A stretch of DNA of 64,000 nucleotides, from positions 6,388,001-6,452,000 of the forward strand of contig CM119371.1 in NCBI GenBank assembly GCA_051294905.1. Direction: 5' to 3'. Below, piece by piece: positions 24,474 to 52,500 of this stretch. Every line of letters starts with the position of its first letter. Position 1 is the first letter of the stretch. The notes beneath the pieces are model-generated. The model saw only the letters and a list, made by a program, of their open reading frames with translations, was not told the origin of the DNA and searched no databases. The position numbers were made by a program, and so were the translations under genes. Source of the stretch: Botryllus schlosseri. Lineage: Eukaryota.

Positions 24474-27400
24474 GCATTGCTCATGAATGAGCATCAGAAA
24501 GACAAAATGTGTAGAGAGATCGTCTCCATCGCAGTTTGGATCACAAACACGTCGGTGGGTTTCACGTATATTTCCAAGACGAGGATTTTGACGACATCGT
24601 TCTCGAGTTGTGCAAAAGAAGGGTAAAAGCTTGACTATGTTGTTAACTGATATCAAGTAAACGGATTTTGACTTACAGCATTTCTTATGTAAAAAGCTGC
24701 AATTCTAACTCGAAGCACATTTGGAAAAACGATGCAATAATTCTAATCTAATTAGGAAAAAACTTGTTCAGCTATAATACTAATTCTAATCAAATTTAAA
24801 TAAAGATTGTGTGACTGTAAGCTAGTTAAGAAAAGCTGTTAGACAACTCTGATCACAAGGGCTGGTCGCAATGATTTGAGTACTCAAATCTAAATCGAGT
24901 AATTTATCAAATGATTCGAGTCGAGTAGGGGGATATGGTTTTTAAAACGGTACTGAAATGATATGCTCCTTACCATAAGAGTCAAAAATTATCAACAATA
25001 AACCTAGCTAAACCTACCTGAGAGGTAATTTACCAATGAGAATTGTGTTTTCGAAAGGATTTCTCACTGTGGAATGATGCAAATCTCGATTGATCGTATC
25101 TTAGCATACGAAATATGTAGTACGAAGCTACTGACGTTAGTGGAAATGACATAGCTGTGAAGTCGTGATCAAGCCACAGCATCGTCAAAAAGTGCAATGA
25201 AATAGGTGTGGTCCAAAAAGCTGCAAAACTGGGATTGCATTATTTGTGGTCACATGAAAAGTACATATTTGAACTTTATACATCATTCCTGGTGTTAGTA
25301 CGACATAACGAGTTCTAACTCGAAGCCCAATAGTCGAAATATCAAGTTAGCACCATGAAATAACCTTTCTAACTTGAAAGGTTCACCGATCTGCAAAATT
25401 TGTTGTCGATTTTTACCTGCCTCCAAGCTCAGAACCACTGATTTATATGTACCCAACAAATATTGCTCTTGATTTGATTCTAAAAGTCCAATGAGCTTTG
25501 ATTTTTGATTGTCAGTCGCTGATGGAAGTTTACATAAGAAGACGCGCCATCACGGAAGCTGAGACTCGTTCTTACATGCAACAAACTCTGCTTGGAGTGG
25601 TTTATCTTCACAACTATATGATCATTCACAGAGATATCAAGGTAACATTGCTTGCAGTAGTGCAGAGTACTTTGTCAGAGGTGGTCCGTAATGAAGTGCT
25701 TCTGGTTTTTCACAGCATCAAGTCAGATTTGGACAACTAGATAATTGTAGTTGCCTAATTTAACTAATTCGAGCGAAAGCCAGTAACCTAATTCTAATGT
25801 AATTGCAAATGTACTCTCATTGTAATTCTAATATAATTTAAGTTTCCCTGAAATTGCCACAGGAGAGCTGTATCGTGCGAAACGAGCCAAGTTTGGTTTA
25901 CAGGCATCTGCTATTATCGTGCTTACTCCGATTTGATATTACCCGAACTTCATTGAATGTCCAAGGTTTCGCTAATTCAGTAATTCCAATTATAATCTAA
26001 TTTTGAAAAACCTTTCTAATTATAGTCTAATTTGGAGATATACTGTTTAGCTTCAATTATAAGTATAATCTAATTCGTCATAAACTTTTAAACTATCATT
26101 CTAATTTAATCTAATTTCGAAGAAACTTTGTAGCTGTCAATCTAATCCTAATATAATTGAGTAGTATATTCATATTGAAGTGAACCCGAATATTTTCGTC
26201 TGACACTTATAGGGGTAATCGTCATCAACTAGTAGAGAATTGAAAAGAACATCGTATGTCAACAATCGCATCACAAAATATGACGTCACCAGAATGAAAT
26301 GTCGAATACGAGAGCATTCAATGTACTATTTTAGATGATGCACGAACTCTTTTTGTTGACACAGCCTTGGCTGGTGTATTTTGATAAAAGTCGACTCCAA
26401 GGCACACAAATGAAAGTGTGAATGACCCTTTCCGAGCATGCGAAATCTGTCGTCTAGCTAATTAAAATATGTGCAACTAACTTAACTAGAAACATTGCTA
26501 GATAATAATAACAATTGACAGTACGAATAAGGAATAACGGATTTGCAAACGGGCGACCGTACTAAGAAATATCACACATGGCATCAGTATTTCAAAAGGA
26601 CAGGATTTCCAGTTTAAAATGAGAGAGCTTTCGAGCCCAAAACCCTCCCCATGACTAAGCCTCTGTTAGTATTGATGACTCTGGCCTGGCAATGGCTGCA
26701 AGAACAGCACACAACAAAGCACCAGTGTCAAGATTTGTGTCAACTAGTTGTTCGTAAACTAATTTTTTAGAAATGCCCATCTAGAACTAGAACTACTCAC
26801 AAATACAATAGCTAGTAGACCATCAACCAACTAGGTTGGTACTTGGTACATGTCTCAATAGTTGTGTGACTGGATTTGTCTTGACAGCTGGAGAACCTCT
26901 TCCTCAACAACAGCATGGAGAGGAAGATTGCAAGTTTTGGCCTAACTACCAAAGCCAACTTTCACACCAAAACAAAGACCTCTTTTTGGGTCAAACCTAA
27001 ATATATTGCCCTGGAAGGTCCCAGTAACAATGGACACAGTTTCGAAATGGAACCTGGTCACTGAGATGTATTTTGTGAGTATGATTTAACACTACTCTGG
27101 GACCTAATAAAAGTGGTTGCAAGGGCATTAGGTGTAGAAGTTGTCAGATCGAGTGCATGAGTAATTCGATTTTGAATCAAGTATTAGTCTTCGACTCGGG
27201 TTTTCAAGTATTACTCATTATGACGCCATAATAGTATGAAAGGTGTGAAAATTGCCATATGTACCTTTTATGCGACCACAAAGAATAGAATGCCAGATCA
27301 CATTAAGGATGATTTGTTATTTTTTCGACCATTCCTATTTCCTTGCACTTTGTGACAAGGCTGTGTATTGATCACGATTTCACAGAAATATGATTTCCAC

Positions 27401-30400
27401 TAACATTGTACCTTTATACTACATATTTCATATGCTGCGATACGACCAATCGAGGTATACACTGGCCTTTGCAGTGGAAAATTGTACCGAAATTATAAAT
27501 CTTGTATTCATATTAACTTTTTGTGGCAAGAATCGTATCATTTCGTGTCCTTCAAATATCGAGTGACTTTAAACTTGACTCGAGTCACATTAAAAAATCG
27601 AGTAACATGACTTTCCTCGAAAAATCAAATATGGAGTGATTCGATATGACGTGTGACTCGAACACAGTGACACATTTCCAACGTTGCTATACCATGCTTT
27701 TCGCAGCAGGTTGTGTATTGACTAGTCACAATAAGTCACTGCAAAGCAAGCACTGTCCAGTGAGATTTTCCAGGCTGCATTCCACAAAAACTATCGACCA
27801 CCTGCTTGGCTATCACGCCCAGATTTTCGGAAAGTGGACTGGAGCCTAGTTTCAACGGTATGGTTTTTACCATTTTATAATCTGGTTACGGCTGGGCTAA
27901 ATCGAGTTCCTGAGAGACTCGATTCTGGATCGAGTATTTAGTCTTTGAGATGAGTATGGGAGTAACGTCGAAAATAATGTCATAATAGTATGAAAGACGT
28001 GGAAAGTTGCCAGTTACACTTTGTGACAATGCTGAGGGTTGATCATGCCGCGATCACGAATCACAGATATGTCATCAAGGTTTACATCCTTCTACGGTGT
28101 AAAACTGCATCGAAAGAATAATTCTTGTAGTGGCCGCAAAAAAGGTAGATAAATTGAACATTAAACTTATTCCATATCGTTGTCATGCCGTAATGAGTGA
28201 TACTCTATTAAAAGACTGATTGCCGATTTATAATCGAATCAATTGGGTGCTCGATTTCTCCCAGACCTACATAGAACATGAAAATAGCAGCATTTCCTGT
28301 AATTTTTTATTGGGAAGGTTCACCGCTATGCAACATTTGTTGTCAAATTTGACCGTCCCACTAGCTCAATCAGGTTGACAACCACTGATTCAGATGTTCC
28401 CAACGAATAATATTGGTGATTTCACTAGGACAATTCAATTTTTTGATTTTTATTGCCAGTCGCTGATGGAGCTTCACAAAAGACGGCGCGTCATCACAGA
28501 ACCAGAGTCTCGTTATTACATGCCACAGATTCTGCTTGGAGTCGGGGTTGCTGTGATACCAGACTTGTACAAACTACTGGATTCATTGAGATGTGCTACT
28601 AGTACTACAACTAGACTTACGCAATTTCCAAAATTTTCAACTAGAACTAATGCCCATTAGGAATCCACAACTAACTACTCAACTAACAGATGAATTACTG
28701 AATTGCAATGAACTAAGAAATAAGAACATCACACAACAGAACAATGGTATCACGATTCACACCAAACGTGTTTTTACTTGCCCGACAACTTCACATTTTA
28801 AATCTGCAACTAGAACCACTAAAAAAGCAGTCGTTTGTTGGCCATCAACCAACTAGATTGGTAATTCGTACAGGTCTGGATGCTTGTGTAACTAAATGTG
28901 AAATTTGTATTGACAGGAGAACCAATTCCTGAGCAACAACATGAAGATTGGAGATTTGACCTAGCTACCTAAGTTGAGTTTGACAGCCGAACAAAGAACA
29001 CGTTTTGCGGCACATCCAACTAAATTGCCCCGGAAGTTCTAAGGAAATAAAGACACAATTTTAAAGTGGACACCCGGTCGATGTGTTGTTTTATGTGAGT
29101 ATGATGCAGCATTGGGGTGTAAGGGTCTTAGATGTAGAGCTGGAAAATATCGCGCACTTGAGTAATTCAAATCTGAATCGAGTCGAGTATTTGAGTCGCA
29201 TTCATGACAGTGTTAACAACATTATGATTGAAGTGCAGAATTGAAATATGTACCTTTTATGCAACCACAAAGAATATAATGCCAGTTCTACATCATAGTA
29301 AAGATGATTTTATATTTTTTCGACCATACCAATTTCATTACACTTGGTGACAATGCTGTGGGTTGATTCCTTCAGAGATATGTCATTTCCACAAATGTGT
29401 GTAGTTTTGTACGACATAACTCGTATGATGCGATATGACCAATCAATATTTCATGGCTTTGACAGCGGGAAATGATGTCAAAACTATAATTCTCGTTGAT
29501 AGATTTCCTCTCACTGGCCAGGAATGTATCATTTTAAATCTAAAAATATTTTCGACTTCCATCCTTAGAATTGATACTCACTCAGTTTACCAATATCCGA
29601 ATCACTATGACAGTCCTAGCCACAAGCGTCCCACTTGATAACTTGATGCATTTTTTGTTTACTCTAGGTCATCGGTTCTCAACCGGGGGTCCGCGAAGCG
29701 TCCGAATTTGCAAAAGGGTTGATAACTTTTTTTCTTTATTTGGATTTAAATCAGAGAAATCACGAAGCACTTTCGCTACATAACTGCTAAAATTTCAGGA
29801 TCACATAAACAGAACGGCTGTCTGTGATGAATTATTCCACTGTGCAAACTCATTGTAATTGGCAAATTATCAACGGAATACTAAAACTAACAATTCACTG
29901 TTGGGGGTGTTTTGTTGGGGTTTTGGAAAAAAGTGGCGTGGAAAGATTTTTTTCCTTGTTATGCATGACCGCTATTCTAGAATAACGTCAAGATGAGCTG
30001 CTAGATTGAAATGACTAGACTGGATGTTGGATTGGTCCACGTATATTGCGATCTTAACCAAAAGGTGTCATCAGAAATTATCATTGCATTAGCTGCCACC
30101 CATACCCATACGTACTTGTGGAAATGAAATTTCGGCACCCAGTGTTATCAAAACAACGTCGCGGATTTTCAAGACACGACCCCGTATTTAAAAAATGCAT
30201 CTACATAATTCGCTTTGAAATAATATAAAAAAACCTTCCCAATTTCTATATAAATAGTAAGCCTATAATATATTTTCAAGAAAAGTCACTTTTCCCTTTC
30301 TTAATACTAGCCTACAGTAAATATATTTCCCCCGGCAGATGACGGTTGCATGATAATAGAGGTCAATTTAAACTAACACTTGGGGGTCCACGGGGGTCCA

Positions 30401-30490
30401 TGAAGGTCCAGAGCGGGTCTGCGAAGACAAAAAGGTTGAAAACCACTGCCCTAGGTATGCAGACATGGTTGGTCGGTAAGGCGCCGTACT
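24474..30490 (+). pseudogene. plk1: Polo-like kinase 1 pseudo-exon cluster 1 (kinase-domain exons, partly duplicated)
   Basis: Exons: 24474-24622 ([10 protein letters not shown]../[22 protein letters not shown], frameshifted); 25516-25641 (SLME..ITEAETR..IIHRDIK); 26888-27074 (LENLFLN..KIASFGL..YIALE..GHSFE); 28460-28543; 28917-29094; 30455-30490 (WLVGKAPY). Most keep AG/GT borders. Confidence 0.88.
29670..30448. mobile_element. hAT (Charlie-like) MITE inserted at a Plk exon splice acceptor
   Basis: Ends CATCGGTTCTCAACC...GGTTGAAAACCACTG. 8-bp TSD CTCTAGGT (29662-29669) / CCCTAGGT (30449-30456), one mismatch. Confidence 0.8.
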
Positions 30491-30546
30491 GGATTTTCAA
30501 ACTGTGCAACCATAGCACGACTCGCTTTCCAAAATGTGCAACTACA

Positions 30547-33500
30547 AGTAGTATATACGATCGCTCGCGAACGGCTATGGGACTCTTATGGCGGGGTGGC
30601 ACGGTGCCGAGAAAACCGGGGGTGGCACGGTGACCCTTATCTCTTATGGCGGGGGTGGCACGGTGACCCTTATCTCTTATGGCGGGGGTGGCACGGTGCC
30701 ATTGTGTCTTATGGCGGGGGTCGCATGGTTACCTTTTCGGGTATAGGCTGCGGCGGCACGGTGCCGTGAAAACTCGTGGTGGCATGGTTACCTTTTCAGG
30801 TATAGGCGCGGTGACAGGGTGACCTTTCAGGAGAGATGATTTGACTAACGTTGTGGGTATAGGCGCGGCGGCACGGTGTTGAATATGTATCAAGTAAATA
30901 GTCACGTGATTGATTCTTAGTTAATGTGTATATTACAAATTAATATATATGACCGATTCGAGTTGATCCCAACGTTTACGGCGAGTGCGACTTTAATATA
31001 TCGTTATTCTTATGGGCGCCGCGATGATTCGTACTTTCGTTGATAGAATGCTAGCGGCATGTCGTACTTTCACCAAAAAGGGTGTGAAATAGTTTGCTGA
31101 ATCTAGGAATCAGTCGCTTGGTTATTAGTTTACCACGGAACCGGCGTAGACGGCGATTCCAATACCAACAATTGCCGCGTTCACATATTAACACTCCAAA
31201 TAGGTGTGAAATAGTTTGCAAACCCTGCGTTCGCTGACAAGATAATGTCTCAGACATACGCGACTTGATGTTACAGGCATATCGATCGCTCACGCGGTGA
31301 AATTTTCGTAAGCAGTTTGGCACAGAGCTTGATTTCACTCGTACGATTTAATAAGTAACGAATAACAGACCGCCAGTGTCGGTAACTTGAATAGCGACAA
31401 ATTGTCACTTATTTCCGCTCTAACCCTAATCCTTTGTGAAGTGAACGCTTATTCAAAAGGGTGTGATATCATTTTAAAATCCTACGACACTCACAGGGTA
31501 ATGCTTCAGACAAAGCGATCCCTCATGCCCGCTCACAAGGTAATATTTCCGTAATTAGTTTGTCACAGAGTCGTCGCAGACGGTGATTCGTAAACCAACA
31601 ATTTGACACTTTCTGGTATGGTCGCTATATGTTTTTGACACTTTGTCCGTGTTTGACTTTAGTTGTATGATAAGAATCATGCGAATATTCAAGCAATGTA
31701 TCAATCGAATGGAATGAAACTTACTACACAGCTCAAGTTGATTCGTATCTGAATGTGTTAATTCGGTACAATTCTAATTAATTTGAGAAATCTTTTTAAT
31801 GTGATCTTTTGATTCGACCGTAATCTGAATATTACTGACACCGACTTTCAGCCACATTGAATTATTCACACATTCCACGCCGCTGTTTTAACAGTTATAG
31901 AATCAATACCAACTATCTCTAACCCGATAATATTCAATCATTTTGGTAATTTACCAACTTTAAATCCATTCGCGGATGTACTAAAGGTAAATCCAAATAA
32001 TCCAAAATGAAATATTTGGACTTTGACATAGTCTGAATTGAAATAGATTGACAAACATGACTACCAACTTTCCCGCAGTCCCATTTCGATATTATATGCA
32101 CATTGATTTGAAACAAGTAATGAAACATTGCAACTCTATTCGCGATCCCGCTTTCCGTTTGTCAAAGAGATATTTTAGCATCTTACCATACTCAAAAGAA
32201 TTCTTCACAACATTAACAATTGTTAAAAATCTAGTTTTCACTTACTTGATTATATCACTACAACTCACAAACTTGAATTAATTCATCCTGGCTGTATTCG
32301 TATGATCGGTCTTTTTTATTCGATTGTAAAGGTCGTTACTATTCTGAAGACAAAGTATTTACTAATCGGTACATATACGATTTGACTTGGACATATTATA
32401 TTTTGAGTATACGAGATTTGAATGTCCGAACAATAACTGAGAATTAATTTATCACAATTAAATCCGTATATTACAGCGTAAAAGATATTGGGGTGTCAGC
32501 AACTCTGTACGGTCGTAGTTACAACCACATTAACTAATCTACCCAGGCAACTCGTCATGATCATTCCTGAAATCAACACAAACACGACCACTGACTTGAG
32601 TTAACCACGAAACAGCATCAAGTTTTAAATCCGCTTGCAGCTGACGGATTATTCGAATGCATCGATGGAGAATATTATTGAACTCGTCGGTATTGTTACT
32701 TCAACAAATTACACCGACTGCGAAAGTTAATATCGAATGGTAAGACTTGATCACATATTTGTTGATCACAGACATGACAAAAAAAACATTACCGAGATTT
32801 TATAAACTAGTCATATTACTCTACACATCTATCAATATCAAAATGCGAGTCATCCAATTTTTCTACTAAAGTAACATTGCACTTTCGGATTCGGATTCGG
32901 TATAGTCATACAAATTGTATTAAATCCAACATCAAAACAAAAGGAATTTTTTTAGTTTATTGAAATCAAATCATTCGTCTTCGACTTGTGCTTTTCTAGA
33001 TTGCACGCAACAATTCGTTACGAATGAGCTGTAACCAAAGTTAAGAATTCTTTGTGTCCACAGATATAGAAGATGAATATAGCTAACACAATCACGAATC
33101 GACGTTTCAGAGTATTTCACGGATGTAATAAACTTGTTAGTGTCGCCTATCTAAAAGTATGCATGCGTTCGATTTCCATACCGACTGTTGCGATGTTTAG
33201 GATTCGCTTACAATGACAAAGAGTGAGGATTTAACATCAATGTCGTTACTGGAGGTATTCACAACAGAGAATCGAAACATTACACAGTGTGAAAATATAT
33301 CTTTGATATCAAAGCACTATCCCAAGTACACGATTAATACTCAACTCCGTTCACACTTTCTATAGAACGTGCTAAATGTAAAATATCACGAGGTTGCACT
33401 CTAAGACTTTGATCATTACAAAAGTAAATTGAATATGTTTGCTCGACGCATTCAATTCAACTAGAAATGTCTAGTGCACAACAATCGTAATATTAAGGAA

Positions 33501-36500
33501 GTACTTGCTACACTGTAATTCACTAAACGTGTTTTGCATTGTTGTTCATTTGTAGCATTGATTGAAATTGTTTTTTGAACCCTCAAATAATAATTCCCGA
33601 CATGAAACCAAACCGCTGAAAGTCGTTACCAACACAAAGAAACACTTTGTACGATGTTTGCCAAATGTACCCTATGGTTAGGTGTACTAGAATTATTTGT
33701 GTAACACATACACCGACAATGTAATCGAGAATATTTCCGTTGTCATTCGCTAAAGTAAATGTCATCACAATACTCTGTCACTAAAGATCTTACTTGTATC
33801 TGATTGAATCACCGATAATTAACTCGCTAAATCAAACCATAAGGAAATTTCACTCACTCATCAGATATGAAACAGCGTCGCTTAATCGGTGTAGATCGTT
33901 TTTCTAAATGCAAATCATACCTGACCAACAGAAAACAATTTTCACTCACCTTGTAATGAAACCAAGTGGTGGACCTTCGTTCAATATTTTGTTTGTGTCA
34001 AATACTTTGCAATAAACACAGTGGAGTGGTCGAGCTTTACATCAGCAGACTGTAATCTGTAAATCAAGCTTACATCCGACTTGTAACTGTATCGTTTACC
34101 TAACCGAGTTGTATGCACAGTTTGATATTTTTTGTTATTTGGTAATTGCTGAATATACTACTTCGAAATACTCCCTTGAACGTAATTTCCATCATCGTAA
34201 TAATCGAAGTACATTTGTGTCGAATTCGTAACAGCCGACTATGACATGATAAATTTTTGACAAGTTATGCTTGGAAGATTGGTGCATCTCTCGAAAAATA
34301 ATATACCACTCATATTGATACTGTTACTCCATTGACCGGTATTTTCAAACGAGTCGATTTTCAACCGAGCAAAATTTATTACTTGAGTTGTCCCGCTTAC
34401 TATATTTAAATGTAAACTCACCCGTCTTTCAACAACAAACAATGATAAAAAGTACACAAGCAAACACAACAAGTTTTACTTTTGTTGGAGACTAATTATT
34501 ATTCCACACATCTCATTTCATACTATGTGTTTATGAAAGATATTCACGGCACACGAAAATATTCGATATTCCATGCTACGAACATACGCAATGATTGGTG
34601 ACGCTTTCACACTATTTCGATTTAGTGTAACAAAAACAACAACAACAATTTTCACTCTCTTGACTTATGAAAACAACAGACGAACCTTCATTCAATATTT
34701 TGTTTTTGTCAACTAGTTACTTTTTCATGAGACCCCCACAACTCTTACAAAAGTACGAAAGATATTTACATCGCACAAAGTAATCAACTTTACTCGATAT
34801 TCTCACATTACGAAACTAAAGAATGGTTGGTTTGACTCTACAAACTGTTTCGTTACCTCAAGAACTTTATTGTCTGAATGGTTGTTCATGTGTCTTAAGA
34901 ACCAAATAGTTCAACACAGCACTAGTACCAACAGAAACACCAGAGTTGTTAACACAAAAGTTTGCATGTGCGCAGTATGCGAATACCGCGTGTAAGTCCA
35001 GCACAATTGCAGTATCCAACCGAGATTAGTTAACACCAATTTATTACAACGGAGCCACGTAAACTTTCGTGAATGTAAGGCATACTCACTTCTCGAGATT
35101 CTGTCAATGTCATAGCAATAAACCAGCTACTCCAACAACAGAGTACATACGTTTTCTAGTGACGACTCTCGAATCTTTCACATAGATCAAACTACTTTGC
35201 TAACGAAAAGTGCTGAGTCATCATATGGTTATCCTCACTAGTAAAACATACTATCATACAAAATGGTCGTTATAGTTTGCACACCAACGGTACATCGTAC
35301 AAGTAACAAGTCTCGAGAATCCAGTTATTCAAAAAACGTGAAAGTATTTCTACACCAAGTCGTTATGTTGACGAAAGCGTATATTGTAATATCATGATCG
35401 ATTTGCATTCGTTGGCCACAAACTGTCACTACTCTAAATAATTCTTTTTCACTCAAACACAAACGCATATTTGTCACCATTCGTTTTCATCAAGCACGGG
35501 TTCAGGAAACTTACTTACTACGACATGAATTTTTATGTTGTGTAAATAGGTAATAATTAAATCAAGTAACGCTATATCAACATCATCGACTTGTGCTAAT
35601 AGATTTACATGCGGTCTTGTGGTTTTCGTCGGGACATACAGCACGAACTAACTGTAGACTCCTCTCTGTTGTACAACTACTCGGTAATCGAAATGCATTA
35701 ACATGTAAACAACGATCTTGTTTCGTCACACCAAAAATATGTTCACTGTCGCGATACTCCGCACAAGACGTGCATAACCTTTTCACACTCGTAATAGTAT
35801 ACCAACGTCAAGCGATAACGTTTAACAAGACCAACGACACTGAACCCACAACGTTTACCTATGTAAAATTAGCACTTTCACTTGCCAGTCCATCGTTTAC
35901 CTGACTAAACATATTATTTTCCTTTGGAGATCTGACGTTTACCCAGAGTAAGAAACCATTTTCACTTGGAAATATATTTTTTCTCTGGTTAACAAACCTT
36001 TTTTCACTTGGAAATATATTTTTTCTCTGGTTAACAAACCTTTTTCCCTGAGCAACACACCATTTTGACTTGGTGGTCGTCGTTTACCCGAGTAAAAATA
36101 TCATTTTCTTTGGAGATCCGGCGTTTACCCAGTGTAACAATACATTTTCACTTGGAAAAACACTTTTACCTAGAGTAACTAATCATTTCTCCTGTGTAAC
36201 AAACCCTTTTCGTCTGGAAAACTATCATTTGCCTGAGTACCAATACAGTTTTCACTTGGAAATCTATCTTTCACCTGGGTAACAATACCATTTTCGTTTT
36301 GAAAATTGACAACCACACCGAACAATTTGATATTTTTGTATATTGTTACAACGGGCAGTGACAAAATATACACCAACAACGACTCCGATACATTTGTCTA
36401 ATCAAATATTCACTTGCTCTGATGCATCCCATCGAAATCATTGGTTACTCGCATGCAATAACAATGTGCTGTTGTACATCGACATGTATGTTTTCGTAAT

Positions 36501-37033
36501 TGGGGAATAAAGGGGTTTCCGATATGGCCGCGATATGGTTCGCGCTTTGGATTTTCCAGAGTCAAAATGTCTGAATAAAACACCTCCTCGACTTTGGTAA
36601 CTGGTTGGTACACGGATAATGATGTTCGGAAAACGGATGAATTTATGTTCCCCATCGCGCTAACAACTCCGGGTTACTTGTGAGTTTCCTCAGGTCTGTT
36701 TACTATATTGTGTCTTTACCGGTCAATACATGTCGCTCCAGTCAGCTGAAACCGGATCACTAATATGAGAAAGTGTGTGGGCCTGATCCGGATATTCACT
36801 CATGAACCAACGACCAATATTCAAGTAAACATGTTACAGACCGTGTTTTGTCTCCATGAAAAATACCAATGCATACACCATCACATACAAGTAACGTCAC
36901 GATTGTTCACAAGTATTCGCGTAAACGAGGTGTACATACAATGTGTCGGTGTACAAACATCATGGAAAACAAATTCATGTTCTCAAGTATCATCATGCGA
37001 CGACTCTGTACATTCAATGTTGGCATAGATGAC
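30547..37033 (+). repeat. Left arm (6487 bp) of the giant inverted repeat
   Basis: Reverse complement of 38017-44470. It carries one extra 33-bp unit near 30624-30689. Confidence 0.97.
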
Positions 37034-38016
37034 ACACGACATGATACAATGGACAGTGCATTATGCATACCGATATATTCTCAGTCAAATATGCGAACCG
37101 TGTACTATCGCGCATCCCGATTTTCGCTGAATATCCACAACACCAACAAATCTGTACATTTCTTTTCCCTCGACCTCGACGATAGAGTTATCATCCCAAT
37201 GTACCTATCGAGTGTATGGTTCATCAGGTGTAAAATCCAAATCAAATGTCACCAAGGTATCGTTTTTCATTTTCAATATTTCCACCGCTGCATCTTGTCT
37301 GTGTCGTAAAACAACGGTGTGGGGCCAGAGGAATCTATGGACAGTTACGCGTAGTCCCATATTTACTCGTGGGTATACTCAGGTAACGACAACGCTTTCT
37401 CAGTGGTCTGCGTGGGTGAACCGTTTCAATACGTAGCTGGATCAACTAGACCAAAAGTTTCCAACAGTGATTTATGTTGACCTGTCGAGTTACGAGATAG
37501 CACCCTCTTGCGGTGTGATTAACACGAAATAAGCCTTCAACTCACAGAGACACACCTTGGATTACATTATCTAATCGTAATCGAACTCGAGATTCACACA
37601 CACACAGAGTCCCTGTTTACGATTTCAATCCGGAGTCACTGCTCACGATGTTTATCTGTAGTCGTTATGTGGGAGTAGCGACATCTGACATATTCATCGC
37701 GTGAAAGATTGATAACGACGGTGATCGCCAAATACATTATACCATGTGAAACACTGCGGCCTCAGCAAAAAAGTTCGCAGGTTAGCACGAACAATACGTG
37801 GTGGGATTGAGCGAGTTACGCAACCCAATTTTACTATATGTCGAAGTCTGGATCACGATACAAGTCTACCTGAGAATCCGAACAATCTTGCAAAATCAAG
37901 GTGTGAACCCGTGAAAGGACTGTACTCGTGTGAGATTGATTTTTCACAAGTTGGGTGGAGGTCGGTTCATACTAAGACCATGTTACGTCCAAATATGGCT
38001 GCTTGCCTGTCTCCAA
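37034..38016. other. Unique 983-bp central spacer of the palindrome
   Basis: Symmetry stops at ..ATAGATGAC(37033) and resumes at GTCATCTAT(38017). Confidence 0.93.
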
Positions 38017-41000
38017 GTCATCTATGCCCACATTGAATGTACAGAGTCGTCGCATGATGATACTTGAGAACATGAATTTGTTTTCCATGATGTTTGTACA
38101 CCGACACATTGTATGTACACCTCGTTTACGCGAATACTTGTGAACAATCGTGACGTTACTTGTATGTGATGGTGTATGCATTGGTATTTTTCATGGAGAC
38201 AAAACACGGTCTGTAACATGTTTACTTGAATATTGGTCGTTGGTTCATGAGTGAATATCCGGATCAGGCCCACACACTTTCTCATATTAGTGATCCGGTT
38301 TCAGCTGACTGGAGCGACATGTATTGACCGGTAAAGACACAATATAGTAAACAGACCTGAGGAAACTCACAAGTAACCCGGAGTTGTCAGCGCGATGGGG
38401 AACATAAATTCATCCGTTTTCCGAACATCATTATCCGTGTACCAACCAGTTACCAAAGTCGAGGAGGTGTTTTATTCAGACATTTTGACTCTGGAAAATC
38501 CAAAGCGCGAACCATATCGCGGCCATATCGGAAACCCCTTTATTCCCCAATTACGAAAACATACATGTCGATGTACAACAGCACATTGTTATTGCATGCG
38601 AGTAACCAATGATTTCGATGGGATGCATCAGAGCAAGTGAATATTTGATTAGACAAATGTATCGGAGTCGTTGTTGGTGTATATTTTGTCACTGCCCGTT
38701 GTAACAATATACAAAAATATCAAATTGTTCGGTGTGGTTGTCAATTTTCAAAACGAAAATGGTATTGTTACCCAGGTGAAAGATAGATTTCCAAGTGAAA
38801 ACTGTATTGGTACTCAGGCAAATGATAGTTTTCCAGACGAAAAGGGTTTGTTACACAGGAGAAATGATTAGTTACTCTAGGTAAAAGTGTTTTTCCAAGT
38901 GAAAATGTATTGTTACACTGGGTAAACGCCGGATCTCCAAAGAAAATGATATTTTTACTCGGGTAAACGACGACCACCAAGTCAAAATGGTGTGTTGCTC
39001 AGGGAAAAAGGTTTGTTAACCAGAGAAAAAATATATTTCCAAGTGAAAAAAGGTTTGTTAACCAGAGAAAAAATATATTTCCAAGTGAAAATGGTTTCTT
39101 ACTCTGGGTAAACGTCAGATCTCCAAAGGAAAATAATATGTTTAGTCAGGTAAACGATGGACTGGCAAGTGAAAGTGCTAATTTTACATAGGTAAACGTT
39201 GTGGGTTCAGTGTCGTTGGTCTTGTTAAACGTTATCGCTTGACGTTGGTATACTATTACGAGTGTGAAAAGGTTATGCACGTCTTGTGCGGAGTATCGCG
39301 ACAGTGAACATATTTTTGGTGTGACGAAACAAGATCGTTGTTTACATGTTAATGCATTTCGATTACCGAGTAGTTGTACAACAGAGAGGAGTCTACAGTT
39401 AGTTCGTGCTGTATGTCCCGACGAAAACCACAAGACCGCATGTAAATCTATTAGCACAAGTCGATGATGTTGATATAGCGTTACTTGATTTAATTATTAC
39501 CTATTTACACAACATAAAAATTCATGTCGTAGTAAGTAAGTTTCCTGAACCCGTGCTTGATGAAAACGAATGGTGACAAATATGCGTTTGTGTTTGAGTG
39601 AAAAAGAATTATTTAGAGTAGTGACAGTTTGTGGCCAACGAATGCAAATCGATCATGATATTACAATATACGCTTTCGTCAACATAACGACTTGGTGTAG
39701 AAATACTTTCACGTTTTTTGAATAACTGGATTCTCGAGACTTGTTACTTGTACGATGTACCGTTGGTGTGCAAACTATAACGACCATTTTGTATGATAGT
39801 ATGTTTTACTAGTGAGGATAACCATATGATGACTCAGCACTTTTCGTTAGCAAAGTAGTTTGATCTATGTGAAAGATTCGAGAGTCGTCACTAGAAAACG
39901 TATGTACTCTGTTGTTGGAGTAGCTGGTTTATTGCTATGACATTGACAGAATCTCGAGAAGTGAGTATGCCTTACATTCACGAAAGTTTACGTGGCTCCG
40001 TTGTAATAAATTGGTGTTAACTAATCTCGGTTGGATACTGCAATTGTGCTGGACTTACACGCGGTATTCGCATACTGCGCACATGCAAACTTTTGTGTTA
40101 ACAACTCTGGTGTTTCTGTTGGTACTAGTGCTGTGTTGAACTATTTGGTTCTTAAGACACATGAACAACCATTCAGACAATAAAGTTCTTGAGGTAACGA
40201 AACAGTTTGTAGAGTCAAACCAACCATTCTTTAGTTTCGTAATGTGAGAATATCGAGTAAAGTTGATTACTTTGTGCGATGTAAATATCTTTCGTACTTT
40301 TGTAAGAGTTGTGGGGGTCTCATGAAAAAGTAACTAGTTGACAAAAACAAAATATTGAATGAAGGTTCGTCTGTTGTTTTCATAAGTCAAGAGAGTGAAA
40401 ATTGTTGTTGTTGTTTTTGTTACACTAAATCGAAATAGTGTGAAAGCGTCACCAATCATTGCGTATGTTCGTAGCATGGAATATCGAATATTTTCGTGTG
40501 CCGTGAATATCTTTCATAAACACATAGTATGAAATGAGATGTGTGGAATAATAATTAGTCTCCAACAAAAGTAAAACTTGTTGTGTTTGCTTGTGTACTT
40601 TTTATCATTGTTTGTTGTTGAAAGACGGGTGAGTTTACATTTAAATATAGTAAGCGGGACAACTCAAGTAATAAATTTTGCTCGGTTGAAAATCGACTCG
40701 TTTGAAAATACCGGTCAATGGAGTAACAGTATCAATATGAGTGGTATATTATTTTTCGAGAGATGCACCAATCTTCCAAGCATAACTTGTCAAAAATTTA
40801 TCATGTCATAGTCGGCTGTTACGAATTCGACACAAATGTACTTCGATTATTACGATGATGGAAATTACGTTCAAGGGAGTATTTCGAAGTAGTATATTCA
40901 GCAATTACCAAATAACAAAAAATATCAAACTGTGCATACAACTCGGTTAGGTAAACGATACAGTTACAAGTCGGATGTAAGCTTGATTTACAGATTACAG

Positions 41001-44000
41001 TCTGCTGATGTAAAGCTCGACCACTCCACTGTGTTTATTGCAAAGTATTTGACACAAACAAAATATTGAACGAAGGTCCACCACTTGGTTTCATTACAAG
41101 GTGAGTGAAAATTGTTTTCTGTTGGTCAGGTATGATTTGCATTTAGAAAAACGATCTACACCGATTAAGCGACGCTGTTTCATATCTGATGAGTGAGTGA
41201 AATTTCCTTATGGTTTGATTTAGCGAGTTAATTATCGGTGATTCAATCAGATACAAGTAAGATCTTTAGTGACAGAGTATTGTGATGACATTTACTTTAG
41301 CGAATGACAACGGAAAAATTCTCGATTACATTGTCGGTGTATGTGTTACACAAATAATTCTAGTACACCTAACCATAGGGTACATTTGGCAAACATCGTA
41401 CAAAGTGTTTCTTTGTGTTGGTAACGACTTTCAGCGGTTTGGTTTCATGTCGGGAATTATTATTTGAGGGTTCAAAAAACAATTTCAATCAATGCTACAA
41501 ATGAACAACAATGCAAAACACGTTTAGTGAATTACAGTGTAGCAAGTACTTCCTTAATATTACGATTGTTGTGCACTAGACATTTCTAGTTGAATTGAAT
41601 GCGTCGAGCAAACATATTCAATTTACTTTTGTAATGATCAAAGTCTTAGAGTGCAACCTCGTGATATTTTACATTTAGCACGTTCTATAGAAAGTGTGAA
41701 CGGAGTTGAGTATTAATCGTGTACTTGGGATAGTGCTTTGATATCAAAGATATATTTTCACACTGTGTAATGTTTCGATTCTCTGTTGTGAATACCTCCA
41801 GTAACGACATTGATGTTAAATCCTCACTCTTTGTCATTGTAAGCGAATCCTAAACATCGCAACAGTCGGTATGGAAATCGAACGCATGCATACTTTTAGA
41901 TAGGCGACACTAACAAGTTTATTACATCCGTGAAATACTCTGAAACGTCGATTCGTGATTGTGTTAGCTATATTCATCTTCTATATCTGTGGACACAAAG
42001 AATTCTTAACTTTGGTTACAGCTCATTCGTAACGAATTGTTGCGTGCAATCTAGAAAAGCACAAGTCGAAGACGAATGATTTGATTTCAATAAACTAAAA
42101 AAATTCCTTTTGTTTTGATGTTGGATTTAATACAATTTGTATGACTATACCGAATCCGAATCCGAAAGTGCAATGTTACTTTAGTAGAAAAATTGGATGA
42201 CTCGCATTTTGATATTGATAGATGTGTAGAGTAATATGACTAGTTTATAAAATCTCGGTAATGTTTTTTTTGTCATGTCTGTGATCAACAAATATGTGAT
42301 CAAGTCTTACCATTCGATATTAACTTTCGCAGTCGGTGTAATTTGTTGAAGTAACAATACCGACGAGTTCAATAATATTCTCCATCGATGCATTCGAATA
42401 ATCCGTCAGCTGCAAGCGGATTTAAAACTTGATGCTGTTTCGTGGTTAACTCAAGTCAGTGGTCGTGTTTGTGTTGATTTCAGGAATGATCATGACGAGT
42501 TGCCTGGGTAGATTAGTTAATGTGGTTGTAACTACGACCGTACAGAGTTGCTGACACCCCAATATCTTTTACGCTGTAATATACGGATTTAATTGTGATA
42601 AATTAATTCTCAGTTATTGTTCGGACATTCAAATCTCGTATACTCAAAATATAATATGTCCAAGTCAAATCGTATATGTACCGATTAGTAAATACTTTGT
42701 CTTCAGAATAGTAACGACCTTTACAATCGAATAAAAAAGACCGATCATACGAATACAGCCAGGATGAATTAATTCAAGTTTGTGAGTTGTAGTGATATAA
42801 TCAAGTAAGTGAAAACTAGATTTTTAACAATTGTTAATGTTGTGAAGAATTCTTTTGAGTATGGTAAGATGCTAAAATATCTCTTTGACAAACGGAAAGC
42901 GGGATCGCGAATAGAGTTGCAATGTTTCATTACTTGTTTCAAATCAATGTGCATATAATATCGAAATGGGACTGCGGGAAAGTTGGTAGTCATGTTTGTC
43001 AATCTATTTCAATTCAGACTATGTCAAAGTCCAAATATTTCATTTTGGATTATTTGGATTTACCTTTAGTACATCCGCGAATGGATTTAAAGTTGGTAAA
43101 TTACCAAAATGATTGAATATTATCGGGTTAGAGATAGTTGGTATTGATTCTATAACTGTTAAAACAGCGGCGTGGAATGTGTGAATAATTCAATGTGGCT
43201 GAAAGTCGGTGTCAGTAATATTCAGATTACGGTCGAATCAAAAGATCACATTAAAAAGATTTCTCAAATTAATTAGAATTGTACCGAATTAACACATTCA
43301 GATACGAATCAACTTGAGCTGTGTAGTAAGTTTCATTCCATTCGATTGATACATTGCTTGAATATTCGCATGATTCTTATCATACAACTAAAGTCAAACA
43401 CGGACAAAGTGTCAAAAACATATAGCGACCATACCAGAAAGTGTCAAATTGTTGGTTTACGAATCACCGTCTGCGACGACTCTGTGACAAACTAATTACG
43501 GAAATATTACCTTGTGAGCGGGCATGAGGGATCGCTTTGTCTGAAGCATTACCCTGTGAGTGTCGTAGGATTTTAAAATGATATCACACCCTTTTGAATA
43601 AGCGTTCACTTCACAAAGGATTAGGGTTAGAGCGGAAATAAGTGACAATTTGTCGCTATTCAAGTTACCGACACTGGCGGTCTGTTATTCGTTACTTATT
43701 AAATCGTACGAGTGAAATCAAGCTCTGTGCCAAACTGCTTACGAAAATTTCACCGCGTGAGCGATCGATATGCCTGTAACATCAAGTCGCGTATGTCTGA
43801 GACATTATCTTGTCAGCGAACGCAGGGTTTGCAAACTATTTCACACCTATTTGGAGTGTTAATATGTGAACGCGGCAATTGTTGGTATTGGAATCGCCGT
43901 CTACGCCGGTTCCGTGGTAAACTAATAACCAAGCGACTGATTCCTAGATTCAGCAAACTATTTCACACCCTTTTTGGTGAAAGTACGACATGCCGCTAGC

Positions 44001-44470
44001 ATTCTATCAACGAAAGTACGAATCATCGCGGCGCCCATAAGAATAACGATATATTAAAGTCGCACTCGCCGTAAACGTTGGGATCAACTCGAATCGGTCA
44101 TATATATTAATTTGTAATATACACATTAACTAAGAATCAATCACGTGACTATTTACTTGATACATATTCAACACCGTGCCGCCGCGCCTATACCCACAAC
44201 GTTAGTCAAATCATCTCTCCTGAAAGGTCACCCTGTCACCGCGCCTATACCTGAAAAGGTAACCATGCCACCACGAGTTTTCACGGCACCGTGCCGCCGC
44301 AGCCTATACCCGAAAAGGTAACCATGCGACCCCCGCCATAAGACACAATGGCACCGTGCCACCCCCGCCATAAGAGATAAGGGTCACCGTGCCACCCCCG
44401 GTTTTCTCGGCACCGTGCCACCCCGCCATAAGAGTCCCATAGCCGTTCGCGAGCGATCGTATATACTACT
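38017..44470 (-). repeat. Right arm (6454 bp) of the giant inverted repeat
   Basis: Reverse complement of 30547-37033. Substitutions found at 33733/41317, 36662/38388 and 37021/38029. Confidence 0.97.
38755..39200 (+). repeat. Degenerate 41-42-bp tandem repeat, about 10 units (mirror copy at ~35850-36295)
   Basis: Units resemble GAAAATGGTATTGTTACCCAGGTGAAAGATAGATTTCCAAGT and GAAAATAATATGTTTAGTCAGGTAAACGATGGACTGGCAAGT. Confidence 0.75.
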
Positions 44471-47400
44471 ACTACAACTACTTACTTTCCCAAGTCCACA
44501 ATTAGAAATAGAACTAGTCAGAGAAAGACGTAGTGAGTTGCACGTCACGAAACTAGATTGGTATTTGTACGAATCTCAATTTCAGGCAATGATCACCAGA
44601 AAGACAATATGTGTCGAGAGATCATCTACATCACGTTTTGAATCACAAGCACTTCATTGGATTTCACAGATTGTTCCAAGACAAGAATTTGTCGACATCG
44701 TTATTGAGTTGTGCTCAAGCAGGGTAAAAGCATTCCCACGTTACAATTGTAATGTCTTCCAAACTGTGGCGCAATTGCATCAGCCCTAATGTTCATTTCT
44801 AGCAGACTTGGACAGCTAGAACATTCTTATCGAATTATCTTAATTAGAACCAAATCTTGGTAATCTAGTTTTAACCTGGTTTATCAAAGCTTTTACGTCC
44901 ACATTTTAATTTCATATAGCATAACTGTATCGTATGAAACAGGCCAAGCTTGGTGTGCAGCTATTTTCTATTCTCCTGCTATATGAGAATAAATCTGGAA
45001 TTATTATCAAGTAAACTTGATTTTCGCACTATTTCTATGATGAATAGAGTAATTAAAATTCTAATCTAATTTGGAAAGGCTTGTATAGCTATCATGCTAA
45101 TTCTGGTCAAGTCTATAATGTCATGATTCACTCAAAATGAAGACGTGTGTTTTCTAGTTGATTGGCAGCTGAAATTATTTTAAATTCACAAATAGAATTA
45201 GGACTAGAACTACTCACTTTTCAAAATCCGCAACTAAATCTAGTACCCGGTATCTGAATTCCAGGCATTGCTCGTGGATGATCACCAGAAAGACAGAATG
45301 TGTCGTGATTGAAACTGCGATGGAGGTTGATCTCTCAAGTACGTCGTTGGATTTCACGGAGTTTGTCGACATCGTTCTCGAGTTGTGCAAACGAAAGGTA
45401 AAAGTATTTCATTGTTACGAATGTAATGTCTCTCAAACTGTGCCGGTCGCAAATGCATCAGCTCTGTAACGTTTATTACTGGTAGACATGGACAACCAAT
45501 TGATATCAAGTAAACTGATTTTGGTGTGTTTCATTTGCGGATTCCGTAATTCTAGTCTAATTTGTAAAAACTCTATGAAGCTGTAACTCTTATTTCAATC
45601 ACACTTTGGAAGACACAGTGGCTACAATTGTAATTCTCATCTAACGTAGAAAAAAAGCTGTGTAGCTATAATTTTAATTCTAATCTAGCATTGAAAAGCT
45701 GGAAATTTAGTTACACGACTTTGAACATTAGGGAGGGTCACAATGATTCGAGTACTCGGATCTGAGTTGAGTATTTATTCTAATAGTCAGAGTCGAGTAG
45801 TGAAATACGATTTTTATTGTAGTACTGAAATAATATGCTCCTTGCCCCAAGTGGTAAATTATTAACAATAAACTGAACTAAACTGAAGTGAGGGTAAATT
45901 CAGCAATGAGAACTATGGCTTCGATAGTATTTCCCACTGCGGAAAGCTGTGAACCTTAATAGGTCGTAACAGAGCATACGAAACATGTAGCACAAAGATG
46001 AACTAGTTACTAGAATGGACATATCTTTAAAGTCGTGATAAACTCACGGTATTGTAACAAAGTGCAATGAAATAGGTATGCTCTACAGAATTTACAAATT
46101 ATCGTAAAGCTTAAAAGGTAGTCTACACATTTTAACTTTCCGCATCATCCATACCGGTATGACATCATAATTAGTGAGTGATACTCGGATACTCGACTCG
46201 AAGCCTGATACTCAATTTAATTTCAAATCAGTGAAGCACTCGATTTCACCATACCCTACGTATGACAACTCAAATATCAAAAAGGCATCATGAAAGGCAG
46301 TTTTCAATTTGAGAGTTCATCGGTTCAAAAAATTTTATTCAGATTTTACCGGACCGCTATCTCAAGTAGGTTGAGATTCTCTGATTTAGATGTTCCCAAC
46401 AAATAATCTTGTGTTTTTTTCATCCTAGCAATCTGATTACCTTTAATTTATGTTTCAGTCGGTGATGGAAGTTTACAGAAAAGACGCGTCATCACAGAAG
46501 CAGAGACTCGTTATTGCATGCGACAGATTGTGATTGGCGTCGTTATCTTCACGATTGTAAGATCATTCACAGAGGTATCAAGGTAATAATTGTAGTGTAG
46601 TTGTCTAATAAAACTAATTAGAGAGGCTGCCTGTAATCTAATTGGTCAAATCTTTCTATGTTCTGATTAATCTCATTTCTAGTTCTCCTGAAATTGCTAC
46701 AGGAGAACTGTATCGTGCAAAAATAACCAAGCTCTGAATCTTGAATCTCTTCCCATCCACGGAATACGTTCACAATATCCGATCCAAATGTAGATTCTTA
46801 TTATAGTTCTAACTCCACAATTCTTGATTTCTAAATATATTTGGAAAATATATGTGAGTTAGTATCTGTGATTTGATTATTATCTGTGCATTTCTCACTA
46901 GAATGTTGGCAAGCGACCCGTTTCATTAAACCTCCGGCGACCGAATTCGTCAACGGCTACATGCCACAGAAACTGCGCACGACCGGACTGACCATGACGC
47001 CCAGGTTATCGGAAAGTCGTCACCAAAGCGTCCTTTGCAAAGTTTGGACGGTAAGATTTTTTTCGTGGGGCTTAGCAAGCTCGAGTTCCTGATTAATTCA
47101 ATTCTGAATCGAGTATTGCATTTCCAGCCGCGTAGTCGAGTCTCACACATTATAAGTTGAGCCCGGTCGATATCGTACTTTGAGTCGAAAACGAAAAGTA
47201 GCACCTTCACCGATAACCCCGATATGTTCAGCCGATATTGAAATATTATGTCATCTAGCTTAAGTCACATTTCCTAAAGCTTCAGAGCATTTATTTGAAC
47301 AACTTTGCGCGCTGGCCCGCGACCACAAAAAGGTTTGAAAACCACTGATTTAGATGTGTCCAACAGATAATATTGTTGTTTTGCTGCTATCAATACTATA

Positions 47401-49544: not shown

Positions 49545-52500
49545 TACTAGAACTACTCGCTTTTCATATCAGCGACTAAAACTAGAACTACTCAAAAAAA
49601 GTACTCAGTTGGTCATAAAGTAGCTCGATTATTAGTTTGTACAAGTTCGTAAACTTGTGTATCTGAATGTGAAATTTGTATTGACAGCTGGAGAGCCTAT
49701 CCCTGAATAATATGGATGTGAAGATTGGAGAGTTCGCTCAAGCTGCCAAGGTCGACTTTGACAGCCACACAAAGAATACTTTTTGCAGCACACATAAGTA
49801 AGTATATTGCCCCGGAAGTTGTCGGCAAATATAGACACACTTTCAAAGTGAACACCTGGTCACTGAGTTGTGTTTTGTGTATATCAGCCAACATTGATAA
49901 GGGATTTTTATAAAAGGAGGCTGCAAGGGTATTAGGTGTAGGGCTTGGCGGAATCAAGTGGCGGGCAGATTCTATCCTGATCGAGGTATTAAACTTCGAT
50001 ATGTCATTACCAGTAATGCTTTGCCTTTATACCACATGGTTCTTACGCTACGATACCACTAATCAAGGTTTACAGCTTTCCTAAGTGGAAAATAATATCA
50101 AAGCGATAATTCTCGTTAATAATTTAACTCTTGGTGAGAAATTTTAAGTGTTTTGACTCAACTCCAGTGACTTCATCTGACCCAAGTCTCCTTGAACTAT
50201 TGAGAGCCTTACCTTGACTCAAGTCACAATAAAAAATGAGTGACTTTCTCCGACCTCTAGACCTCCTACTGTTGACATGGCCTGGAAAAATCGAATAACT
50301 TGACTCGATTCAAAATATGCAGTGACTCGATATGACTTGTAACTCGAACATAGTGACTCGTTTCCAACACTGACCCACCGTGATTTTTTACAGAATGTTG
50401 TCCATTGATCATCAGAACGACCCAGCATAAAGCAAGCACCGTCCAGTGTGCTCTTCCAAGGCTCCATTCCAAAAGAACTACAGACAACCTGCTTGGCTAT
50501 CACAACCAGATATCGGAAACTCAACTGGATCCAACTTTCATTGGTGAGATTTTCACGTTTGTATAATATGGTTACGACTGGTCAAAATCGAGAACCTAAG
50601 TGGAGCGATTCTGGATCGAGTATTAGACTTTGAGTCAAGTATGCGAGTACCATCAATAATGACATCATAACGGGAAGAAAGAAGTGGAAACTTGAACTAT
50701 GATACGATGTAAATTCTCACTGAAGTAAAGTTAAAAGTAGTGATTTCCTAGTAGGTAAAGTATTCATCATCCCAGGCCTAGTTTCGGCTTGGAAACTCGA
50801 AAAAGTGATGTAGAAGCAGAAATCGTCTACAATCATAACCGCTTGTTTAATTAGTGCCAGTAGACGAAACCTACACGAGTACTTTTTACAAAGCAAAAGT
50901 ACTTTTTTACTGACCCTCTCTGGTTAAGAGGGAGACACACAACTATTTTATCAATCCCAGTTGTCCGTTTCAATCGAGCAGTGTCAGATAAATGAGTCGA
51001 ACATGACTTGAACTCGAAACTGAACAGTGGTAATAAACGGAATGACTCGGGGTCGAACTTGAGTATAGACACTATGACTCGGACTTGACCATTTGCACGT
51101 TGACTCAGTCTTGACTTGTTTGGGAATTGAATATGATTCGAGTAGAAACCATAGGAGTAAGATTGACTCGTAACTCAGAATCTTGTGACTTGGTTACAAT
51201 CCTGACCGATTCCGATAAAACCGATAACAAGTATCTTCACCAATGAAGCGGCTATATTCAGTCGATATTCATTAGATATGGCATCTAGCATAATGTGCAT
51301 TTTCAAAAATTCAGAACATTGATTTGAACGGCTTTACAGCCACTGTTAAGTTTTTGCATGAAATAAACTAGTAAAGCTGCACCCATACACTTGTATGCAG
51401 GGATGTTCAGAGTAGAATGGAATTTGTGAGGAAAGACCACGCTGCAACGTTGGCAAGTCAATCAATTGAAACTACTGCGTCATCATTTCTTGACTGGTTC
51501 CAAATAAACCTTTATTAGTTTTTCGGTATTACGCCGGCGATATTTAAAAAAGCAAAACTTTCAGCAAATACTTAAATATGAATTACTGTCATTGTGAAAA
51601 GTACTATTAGAAGCCTAATTCAAGTTATGCACTGTAACTTAGTAGTGGTGTATTGGTAGAAAATACTTTGCAACTTTGCAAAAGGCTAGTATTACGAACT
51701 ATGTTAATTGGGAAGGTTCACCACTCTGCAAAATTTCTTGTCGGATTTTTCCGACCTGCTAGTCCATAGTTGAGAATCACTGATTTAGAATTGTCCAATA
51801 AATAGTATTGTTTTTCTTATTCTAGCCACACAATTATCTTTTATATTTATTCTCAGTCGCTGATGGAACTTAGTAAAGAAGACGCGTCGTCCCGGAACCA
51901 GAAACTCGTTAATACATGCAACAGATTGTGCTGGATGTCATTCATCATAACGACTGTAAGATCATTCACAGAGATATCAAGGTAACATTTTAGGGGTGGA
52001 AGCAGACTCGTACACGCTACTGGAGTTTCAAAATGCGCAACTACAACTAGAATTACTGACTCTTCGAAATTACGACTAGAACTACAGCGAATCACTTTTC
52101 AAAACTCGCAACTAGAACTAGAACTACTTACTCTGTACAACTCGTAGCTAATCCTGGAAATGTGAAACGACCCCAAAATCTCACCCCTGACTACGTCCAT
52201 TTTTGTATTGATGACTCTGAGAACATCAAACAACAGAACACAGGTATTAAGATTCATGGCAAACGACGACACTCGTTTTCTAGTTAGGCGGCAACTAATT
52301 GTATTGGAAATGCATACCCAGAACTAGTACTATTCACTTTTCCAATCCGCAACTACAACTAAAACTAGAACAAAAAGAATGACTTAGGTGGCCATCAAAT
52401 AACTACATTATTAGTTGGTACAATTTTGTATTGGCCTACTTGTGATAATGAATGTGAAAGTTGTATTGACAGCTGAAGAATCTATATTACCAGTTCTACG

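Follow-up and report, generated by a model that had tools for sequence, protein, structure and literature searches.

How does a segment of animal DNA come to bear the ends of a Maverick/Polinton, a virus-like element dense in genes, and yet consist almost entirely of a non-coding sequence and its own inverted copy? This question is raised by a 64-kb stretch of the Botryllus schlosseri genome (contig CM119371.1, positions 6,388,001 to 6,452,000), hereafter the window, in which a 13,924-bp element occupies positions 30547-44470. A first, sequence-only reading had taken it for a gene-less defective molecule, made when one end of a Polinton was copied back onto the other. On balance, we lean towards a related but different answer: a real, fairly young insertion that belongs to a non-autonomous, amplified fold-back family with Maverick/Polinton-type ends, for which copy-back is the likeliest origin. 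Such an element would probably be a parasite of a Maverick/Polinton virus-like element, and not a one-off defective genome.

Architecture, ends and coding content

The sequence confirms the structure described in the sequence-only reading: a 983-bp spacer flanked by two inverted arms, of 6,487 and 6,454 bp, which together make about 93% of the element palindromic. An inverted-repeat search returned an outer pair at 30547-30665 / 44352-44470 (119 nt) and an inner pair at 30650-37033 / 38017-44400 (6,384 nt). When the left arm (30547-37033, plus strand) was aligned to the reverse complement of the right arm (38017-44470, minus strand), the two differed by three mismatches (33733 A/T, 36662 A/G and 37021 T/G), an identity of 99.95%, and by a single 33-nt gap, which is an extra tandem unit in the left arm at 30617-30649. 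Of the 13,924 bp, 92.9% belongs to the arms, whose GC skews are mirror images, as a palindrome requires. The asymmetric spacer (37034-38016) has neither similarity to the arms nor internal symmetry.

Direct reading also bears out what had been said of the termini. The left terminus reads AGTAGTATATACGATCG from 30547 (30547-30563, plus strand), and the right terminus, CGATCGTATATACTACT, is its exact complement and closes at 44470, so that the first and last six nucleotides of the element are AGTAGT...ACTACT, the (AGT)2/(ACT)2 end motif. The hexamer ACTACA abuts both termini (30541-30546 and 44471-44476); the symmetry of the arms halts exactly there, and the next outward base of the left flank breaks the match, which fixes the target-site duplication (TSD) at exactly 6 bp (a 6-nt match by chance has P = 1/4096). 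A blastn search of the window, with 0 of its 43 alignments outside the element, found no further copy, and no inverted repeats of the kind that mark nested transposons were found inside the arm. There is no paralogous empty site within the window, the flank paralogues ending before the insertion point.

Each arm begins with a distinctive subterminal domain. The first 340 nt (30547-30886, plus strand) are 57% GC, against 36.5% in the remaining arm, and hold six copies of GGCACGGTG at 52-324 nt from the left end, five of which are mirrored at the right terminus; outside the two termini this motif has no copy in the whole 64 kb. A 33-bp tandem array at 30617-30733 is part of the same domain. Tandem subrepeats account for little of the arm, the bulk of which is unique sequence: near each end the 33-bp units fill no more than ~120 nt, and farther inward ~350 nt are taken up by 42-bp units. 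The latter are degenerate 41-42-bp repeats (35949-36305, plus strand, with their mirror at 38745-39101), and in two of the public sequencing runs considered below, X6 and X14, no other part of the element is as deep, the depth in X14 being 1,253 against ~200 elsewhere. These repeats may also be present outside the element's family.

Vertebrate Mavericks have been defined by their end motif together with perfect 6-bp target duplications. The end motifs are conserved over 6 bp, the commonest being 5'-(AGT)2//(ACT)2-3', and intact elements measure 12,723-24,620 bp, with terminal inverted repeats (TIRs) of 46-1,447 bp and dense genes; the repeats at the ends are ascribed to jumping-back during protein-primed replication (PMC8097293, cited here and below in excerpt). 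If the ends of a Maverick are taken to be TIRs that close in (AGT)2//(ACT)2 or (AG)3//(CT)3, the element has the first of these, and the one copy examined has the 6-bp TSD; this agreement with PMC8097293, as excerpted, upholds the assignment of Polinton-type ends in the sequence-only reading. Its 13,924 bp also fall inside the range of intact elements, whether that is taken as 12,723-24,620 bp or as 13-25 kb, as the claim of near-genome length had it. End motif, TSD length, TIRs and size thus place every cis-feature of a Maverick at this locus. A TSD of 6 bp is likewise given for Polintons in a second source, in which the other superfamily with 6-bp TSDs, IS3EU/GingerRoot, has TA..TA ends (PMC10045372, in excerpt), and the ends of Ginger2 are TGTNR (PMC2836005); we reject membership in either, the termini here being AG...CT. 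Exact-pattern scans found no match to the terminal 22-mer among viral, metagenome and prokaryote-genome contigs, and none to a 36-mer of the 42-bp repeat among metagenome and prokaryote-genome contigs. In viral contigs, one locus matched the terminal 17-mer and two matched a paired GGTGGCACGGTG pattern; all three resemble chance matches in unrelated sequence: one (L001) lies in a GC-rich tandem repeat and the others (L002 and L003) in coding-like stretches.

Long TIRs composed in large part of tandem subrepeats, also near the ends, are characteristic of Foldback types such as Drosophila FB and Galileo, which are often gene-less, mobilised in trans and present in high copy number. Our element shares with them its long inverted arms, the end-proximal subrepeats (TIRs with 33-bp tandem units), the lack of genes and, as detailed below, a very high abundance, and its subterminal motif arrays resemble those of Foldback/Galileo-type elements. 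It could be proposed, then, that this is a Foldback-like cut-and-paste transposon unrelated to Mavericks, moved by a conventional transposase, in which the AGTAGT ends and the 6-bp TSD are coincidental. We consider this improbable. Ends of (AGT)2/(ACT)2 that occur jointly with an exact 6-bp TSD are a specific Maverick signature, and the superfamilies with 6-bp TSDs that were checked end in TA..TA or TGTNR. The TSD is 9 bp for FB and 7 bp for Galileo, whereas that of the element is exactly 6 bp and accompanies Maverick-type ends.

Where the element departs from an autonomous Maverick/Polinton is in its coding content and in the extent of its inverted repeat, which at 6.5 kb per arm and 93% of the total far exceeds TIRs of 46-1,447 bp. 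The sequence-only reading had put the longest reading frame at no more than 146 amino acids; this is amended to 149, for a stop-to-stop frame at 36860-37309. Over 500 shuffles, the mean length of the longest frame was 108.8 +/- 17.8 amino acids, and 3.4% of the shuffles attained 149. The frames of one (left) arm and the spacer number 161 at a threshold of at least 30 amino acids. None of the 71 of at least 45 amino acids matched Pfam at E < 0.01, their weak matches including no polymerase, integrase, protease, ATPase or capsid family, and none of the 90 frames of 30-44 amino acids did so at E <= 0.01. No polymerase family that would betray a pPolB gene was found in the arm and spacer frames or elsewhere among the scanned frames of the window, and no match of the rve type, as expected of a retroviral-like integrase, was found in the arm and spacer frames or in the flanks, where the Pfam scan covered 74 of the 77 frames of at least 75 amino acids and 150 of the 163 plus-strand frames. 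Likewise, no capsid, packaging ATPase or adenain-like protease was matched in the arm and spacer frames, although Pfam may miss some Maverick capsids. A 115-amino-acid frame yielded seven candidates that share words with it, none at E <= 0.001, and hence no homologue. The sole match of the 149-amino-acid frame among 1.84 billion representatives, a repetitive protein of 2,279 amino acids that aligned in 10 short stretches, was judged spurious. Rfam gave no match at the gathering score in the whole window. The profile search of all 161 frames therefore sustains the claim that detectable Polinton genes are absent and, judged by these searches, no gene can be recognised in the element itself, be it for pPolB, integrase, ATPase, protease or capsid. 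Since Polintons by definition encode pPolB and an integrase (PMC5499653, in excerpt), it falls outside the Mavericks by a gene-based definition, yet has all of their cis-features.

An abundant family and its sister arms

Part of the interval 36000-39000 is contained in twenty listed public runs from 11 studies, most of them labelled organism A and none listed as RNA. Four of these runs (X1, X4, X6 and X14), all of them contig sets, were mapped to 28000-38320, a span that comprises the left flank, the left arm, the spacer and 304 nt of the right arm. In X1, 150,180 contigs were placed on the element, 45,562 at >= 99% identity, 54,037 at 95-99% and 50,581 at 90-95%. Summed across contigs, which is not the same as copy number, depth in X1 ranged over 58,209-338,734 for the arm (24 listed positions) and over 2,255-58,241 for the spacer (10 listed positions), so that the spacer too is repeated in the genome, unevenly and below the level of the arms. 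The single-copy flank, on the other hand, was represented by six contigs with 0 differences at a depth of 10.3-17.6, from which we conclude that X1 is probably the source individual. Depth is fairly flat over ~31100-36600 and lower over the outer ~500 nt and the spacer, and each listed arm position has an alternative letter on 27-105 distinct contigs. On summed depth only, the arm family would be of the order of thousands of copy-equivalents, with at least dozens of distinct variants. The idea of a single defective molecule has to be altered accordingly: the sequence of the arm is part of a very abundant, diverged family, and the element behaves as an amplified non-autonomous transposon family. 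This abundance is orders of magnitude above the copy numbers of autonomous Mavericks in animals, for which a mean of 22 and a maximum of 287 are given (PMC8097293).

The runs differ among themselves. By our arithmetic, X6 has ~4-6 times less of the arm family, relative to the flank repeats, than X1 has, and coverage in X4 varies ~50-fold along the element, the termini, the interval 35590-35934 and the spacer being covered most deeply. Differences between X1, X6 and X4 may stem from strain differences, from library bias against snap-back DNA, from RNA or from extrachromosomal copies. Horizontal transfer to organism C, the source of X14, was considered but is not supported, the ratio of X14 to X1 depth being ~0.0003-0.004 for 28 of the 30 bins, or about one-thousandth in the element and the flank repeats alike; the X14 signal suggests trace amounts of organism-A-like DNA or a repeat landscape in common.

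How the two arms of this copy relate to each other can be read from the variants of the family. Of the 24 listed arm positions, 19 show in this copy the letter that is in the minority in X1, and at 18 the minority letter is common to both arms; at 33733 the left arm has the minority letter and the right arm that of the family majority. The 18 common minority letters make the arms sister copies, which at 99.95% identity resemble each other far more than they do the family at large, and such arms suggest that a duplication took place within one molecule or that the two were homogenised. Two independent insertions in head-to-head orientation are ruled out by the symmetrical inner ends together with the 18 common minority letters.

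Other members of the family appear to have been built on the same plan. Among hundreds of rows for X6, a few record joints within the element: one joins 33785 to 38152 with one letter between them at a depth of 12,333, and thereby connects the left arm to the inverted right arm; another joins 33478 to 37891 on a contig that continues to 38037. These deletion joints indicate that other multi-copy members stem from the same fold-back layout. In X14, a contig stops exactly at 37033, the inner boundary of the left arm, as a branch point would give. The X6 contig that crosses 38016/38017 has 21 nt on the arm side, under the bridging criterion of 31 nt.

These data also bear on whether the palindrome could be an artefact, that is, a fold-back chimeric read or the collapse or mis-joining of a high-copy repeat. 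A highly repeated family invites mis-assembly, and among the contigs mapped, which represent the left half of the element and 304 nt of the right arm, no single independent record spans the whole structure. Nevertheless, we regard an artefact as very improbable indeed. The outer ends lie in different flanks that have no similarity to each other and have an exact 6-bp TSD in common, the arms are separated by a 983-bp non-symmetric spacer, and they differ at three sites and by one 33-bp unit. A read folded upon itself would give neither spacer nor TSD. Moreover, the order of left arm to inverted right arm recurs in X6 as a multi-copy deletion joint, and the X14 contig ends exactly at the inner boundary, 37033.

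Origin of the fold-back form

We propose the following sequence of events. The body of the element is one non-coding sequence of ~7.5 kb, the outer 6.5 kb of which stands twice, in inverted order. Replication would have started at the (AGT)2 ends, and the arms would have been made within one molecule, most likely through a strand switch (copy-back) on a linear protein-primed replicon or, alternatively, through an equivalent template switch during repair. The fold-back form would then have multiplied, and its deletion derivatives with it. In the case at hand, TSD and end motif show that an element with Maverick-type ends was inserted at a 6-bp staggered cut within a kinase-gene intron; most likely the retroviral-like (DDE) integrase of an autonomous Maverick, supplied in trans, joined a linear DNA with (AGT)2/(ACT)2 ends to that cut. 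The subterminal GGCACGGTG array, within ~330 nt of each end, would be a likely platform for trans-acting proteins, a position that has a parallel in the packaging repeats of adenovirus, a few hundred bases from the end of the genome (PMC5033970, in excerpt). Copy-back is a natural error of strand-displacement replication, and polintons with enlarged TIRs exist. In a copy-back genome, both ends would come from one parental end and meet at a strand-switch junction; the order of arm, spacer and inverted arm fits this, while the junction has no diagnostic feature.

Comparable systems exist both outside and inside chromosomes. Defective protein-primed genomes carry long inverted duplications, and the incomplete particles of adenovirus and the palindromic or hairpin derivatives of linear plasmids resemble our element in that one end is retained and reused; they are extrachromosomal and short-lived, whereas the element is integrated, heritable and amplified. 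The DNA in incomplete adenovirus particles is that of the left end, with the packaging repeats within a few hundred bases of it (PMC5033970). Among integrated elements, butterfly polintons have TIRs of ~2 kb that bear hexon and adenain genes, the elements being autonomous (bioRxiv 10.1101/2025.02.07.637071, in excerpt). On that account, they too have an inverted repeat extended past the usual few hundred bases with duplication of internal sequence; in the element, by contrast, the duplication spans nearly everything and none of it is coding.

The same evidence can be accommodated by a different history, in which the element is Maverick-ended but its TIRs grew on the chromosome, through template switching in break or gap repair or through fork stalling, and gene conversion has since homogenised the arms. 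Gene conversion in large palindromes can keep arms alike, and arms that are 99.95% identical amid a diverged family are what it would leave. Polintons with TIRs enlarged to 2 kb exist, according to the excerpted source just cited, and the spacer is a mosaic, with an uneven depth of 2,255-58,241 at the 10 listed positions. Nothing separates this history from copy-back, the joint of 33785 to 38152 suiting either origin, and template switching in chromosomal repair with later gene conversion would look identical. We deem chromosomal growth unlikely, although it deserves real weight.

Several points weigh against our preferred reading, an amplified Maverick-ended family of probable copy-back origin. 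Subterminal motif arrays and tandem repeats are typical also of cut-and-paste, Foldback-like transposons. Some 7.5 kb of arm and spacer are without trace of a Maverick gene, and copy-back of the end of an autonomous element predicts otherwise. Depth falls several-fold from the arm interior to the terminal 200 nt and the spacer, and many members of the family may be without this architecture. Only one TSD could be read, and the pattern scans of viral, metagenome and prokaryote contigs brought up no related sequence. Finally, thousands of copy-equivalents, even if summed contig depth is no copy number, far exceed the mean of 22 and maximum of 287 for Mavericks in animals.

The absence of gene remnants and the very high abundance weaken, in particular, a direct copy-back of an autonomous Maverick end. 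What endures of the sequence-only reading is a Polinton-like molecule in its cis-ends, its length and its lack of genes; what does not is the single molecule, and its direct derivation from the gene-dense end of an autonomous Maverick is hard to uphold. It is more economical to suppose that a non-coding Maverick-ended element turned fold-back once or a few times and was then amplified. The element works like a non-autonomous derivative in the Foldback style, and does not call for a new category.

A bolder version would make the element a hairpin-type satellite of a polintovirus: a gene-less linear DNA of genome length, replicated outside the chromosome from its (AGT)2 ends by the terminal protein (TP) and polymerase of a helper, packaged into helper capsids by way of the GGCACGGTG array and re-integrated by the helper integrase, with new variants arising by recurrent copy-back. 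We hold this to be decidedly doubtful. If true, it would be the first natural minireplicon of an animal Maverick, and the 4-6-fold gap in abundance between two samples of one organism could reflect extrachromosomal copies. The element may also be compared with the transpovirons, gene-poor relatives of polinton-like viruses, which measure ~7 kb, retain a gene for a helicase-polymerase fusion and are carried by giant viruses that infect protists (PMC5499653, in excerpt). As that source portrays them, they are reduced, TIR-bearing linear DNA parasites dependent on a virus of the Polinton-centred class, as the element would be; unlike them, it codes for nothing and resides in an animal genome.

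Genomic setting and significance

The insertion lies within a host gene. Upstream of it, Pfam identifies kinase-domain frames at 25495-25737 (Pfam positions 81-126) and 26885-27061 (127-176), and downstream a further kinase-domain frame at 49722-49910 (161-189) and a POLO-box frame at 57965-58270, all on the plus strand. The kinase-domain frames run in ascending profile order and are followed by the POLO box, and their presence on both sides puts the element in an intron of a gene of the polo-like-kinase type. The left flank at 29685-30376 has a diverged paralogue at 11824-12486 (minus strand), 18 kb upstream, with 74-86% identity in pieces, which places the insertion inside or beside an older dispersed repeat. 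A separate high-copy repeat is present in the same flank at 29035-29379, where the summed depth in X1 is 38,382; 188 X1 contigs with loose ends of low agreement (0.56) have a common break at 29244, as at the terminus of a repeat.

The window holds other features of mobile or repetitive character, though no Maverick gene among the scanned frames. Three adjacent long frames at 20809-23903 (plus strand) combine a THAP domain with a TNP-like RNase H N-terminal domain and represent a P-element/THAP9-like transposase, and a second THAP-domain frame is found near the end of the window, at 63264-63551 (minus strand). Two long C2H2 zinc-finger arrays at 4928-6628 and 18493-19488 (plus strand), with 15 and 10 fingers by Pfam, have an unusual TGVKNY linker; they are mutually related and give the impression of a local gene family.

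A search of the literature, with most subscription journals and the repeat databases outside its scope, turned up no Maverick derivative described as gene-less or fold-back and no usable paper on palindromic defective protein-primed replicons. So far, both the replication of Mavericks/Polintons and their capacity, if any, to form particles in animals have been inferred almost wholly from their genes. A gene-less, massively multiplied element that has retained the ends only would reveal which cis sequences are enough for integration and possibly also for replication and packaging (candidates are the (AGT)2 end and the ~330-nt motif array), and it would offer a natural substrate on which protein-primed replication could be tested. 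It would also show that the Maverick machinery is able to drive bursts like those of miniature inverted-repeat transposable elements (MITEs), which the copy numbers of Mavericks in animals, in the tens, do not suggest. For the host, a 6.4-kb inverted repeat in the intron of an expressed gene should yield long double-stranded RNA, which would be a plausible source of small RNAs directed against the whole family.

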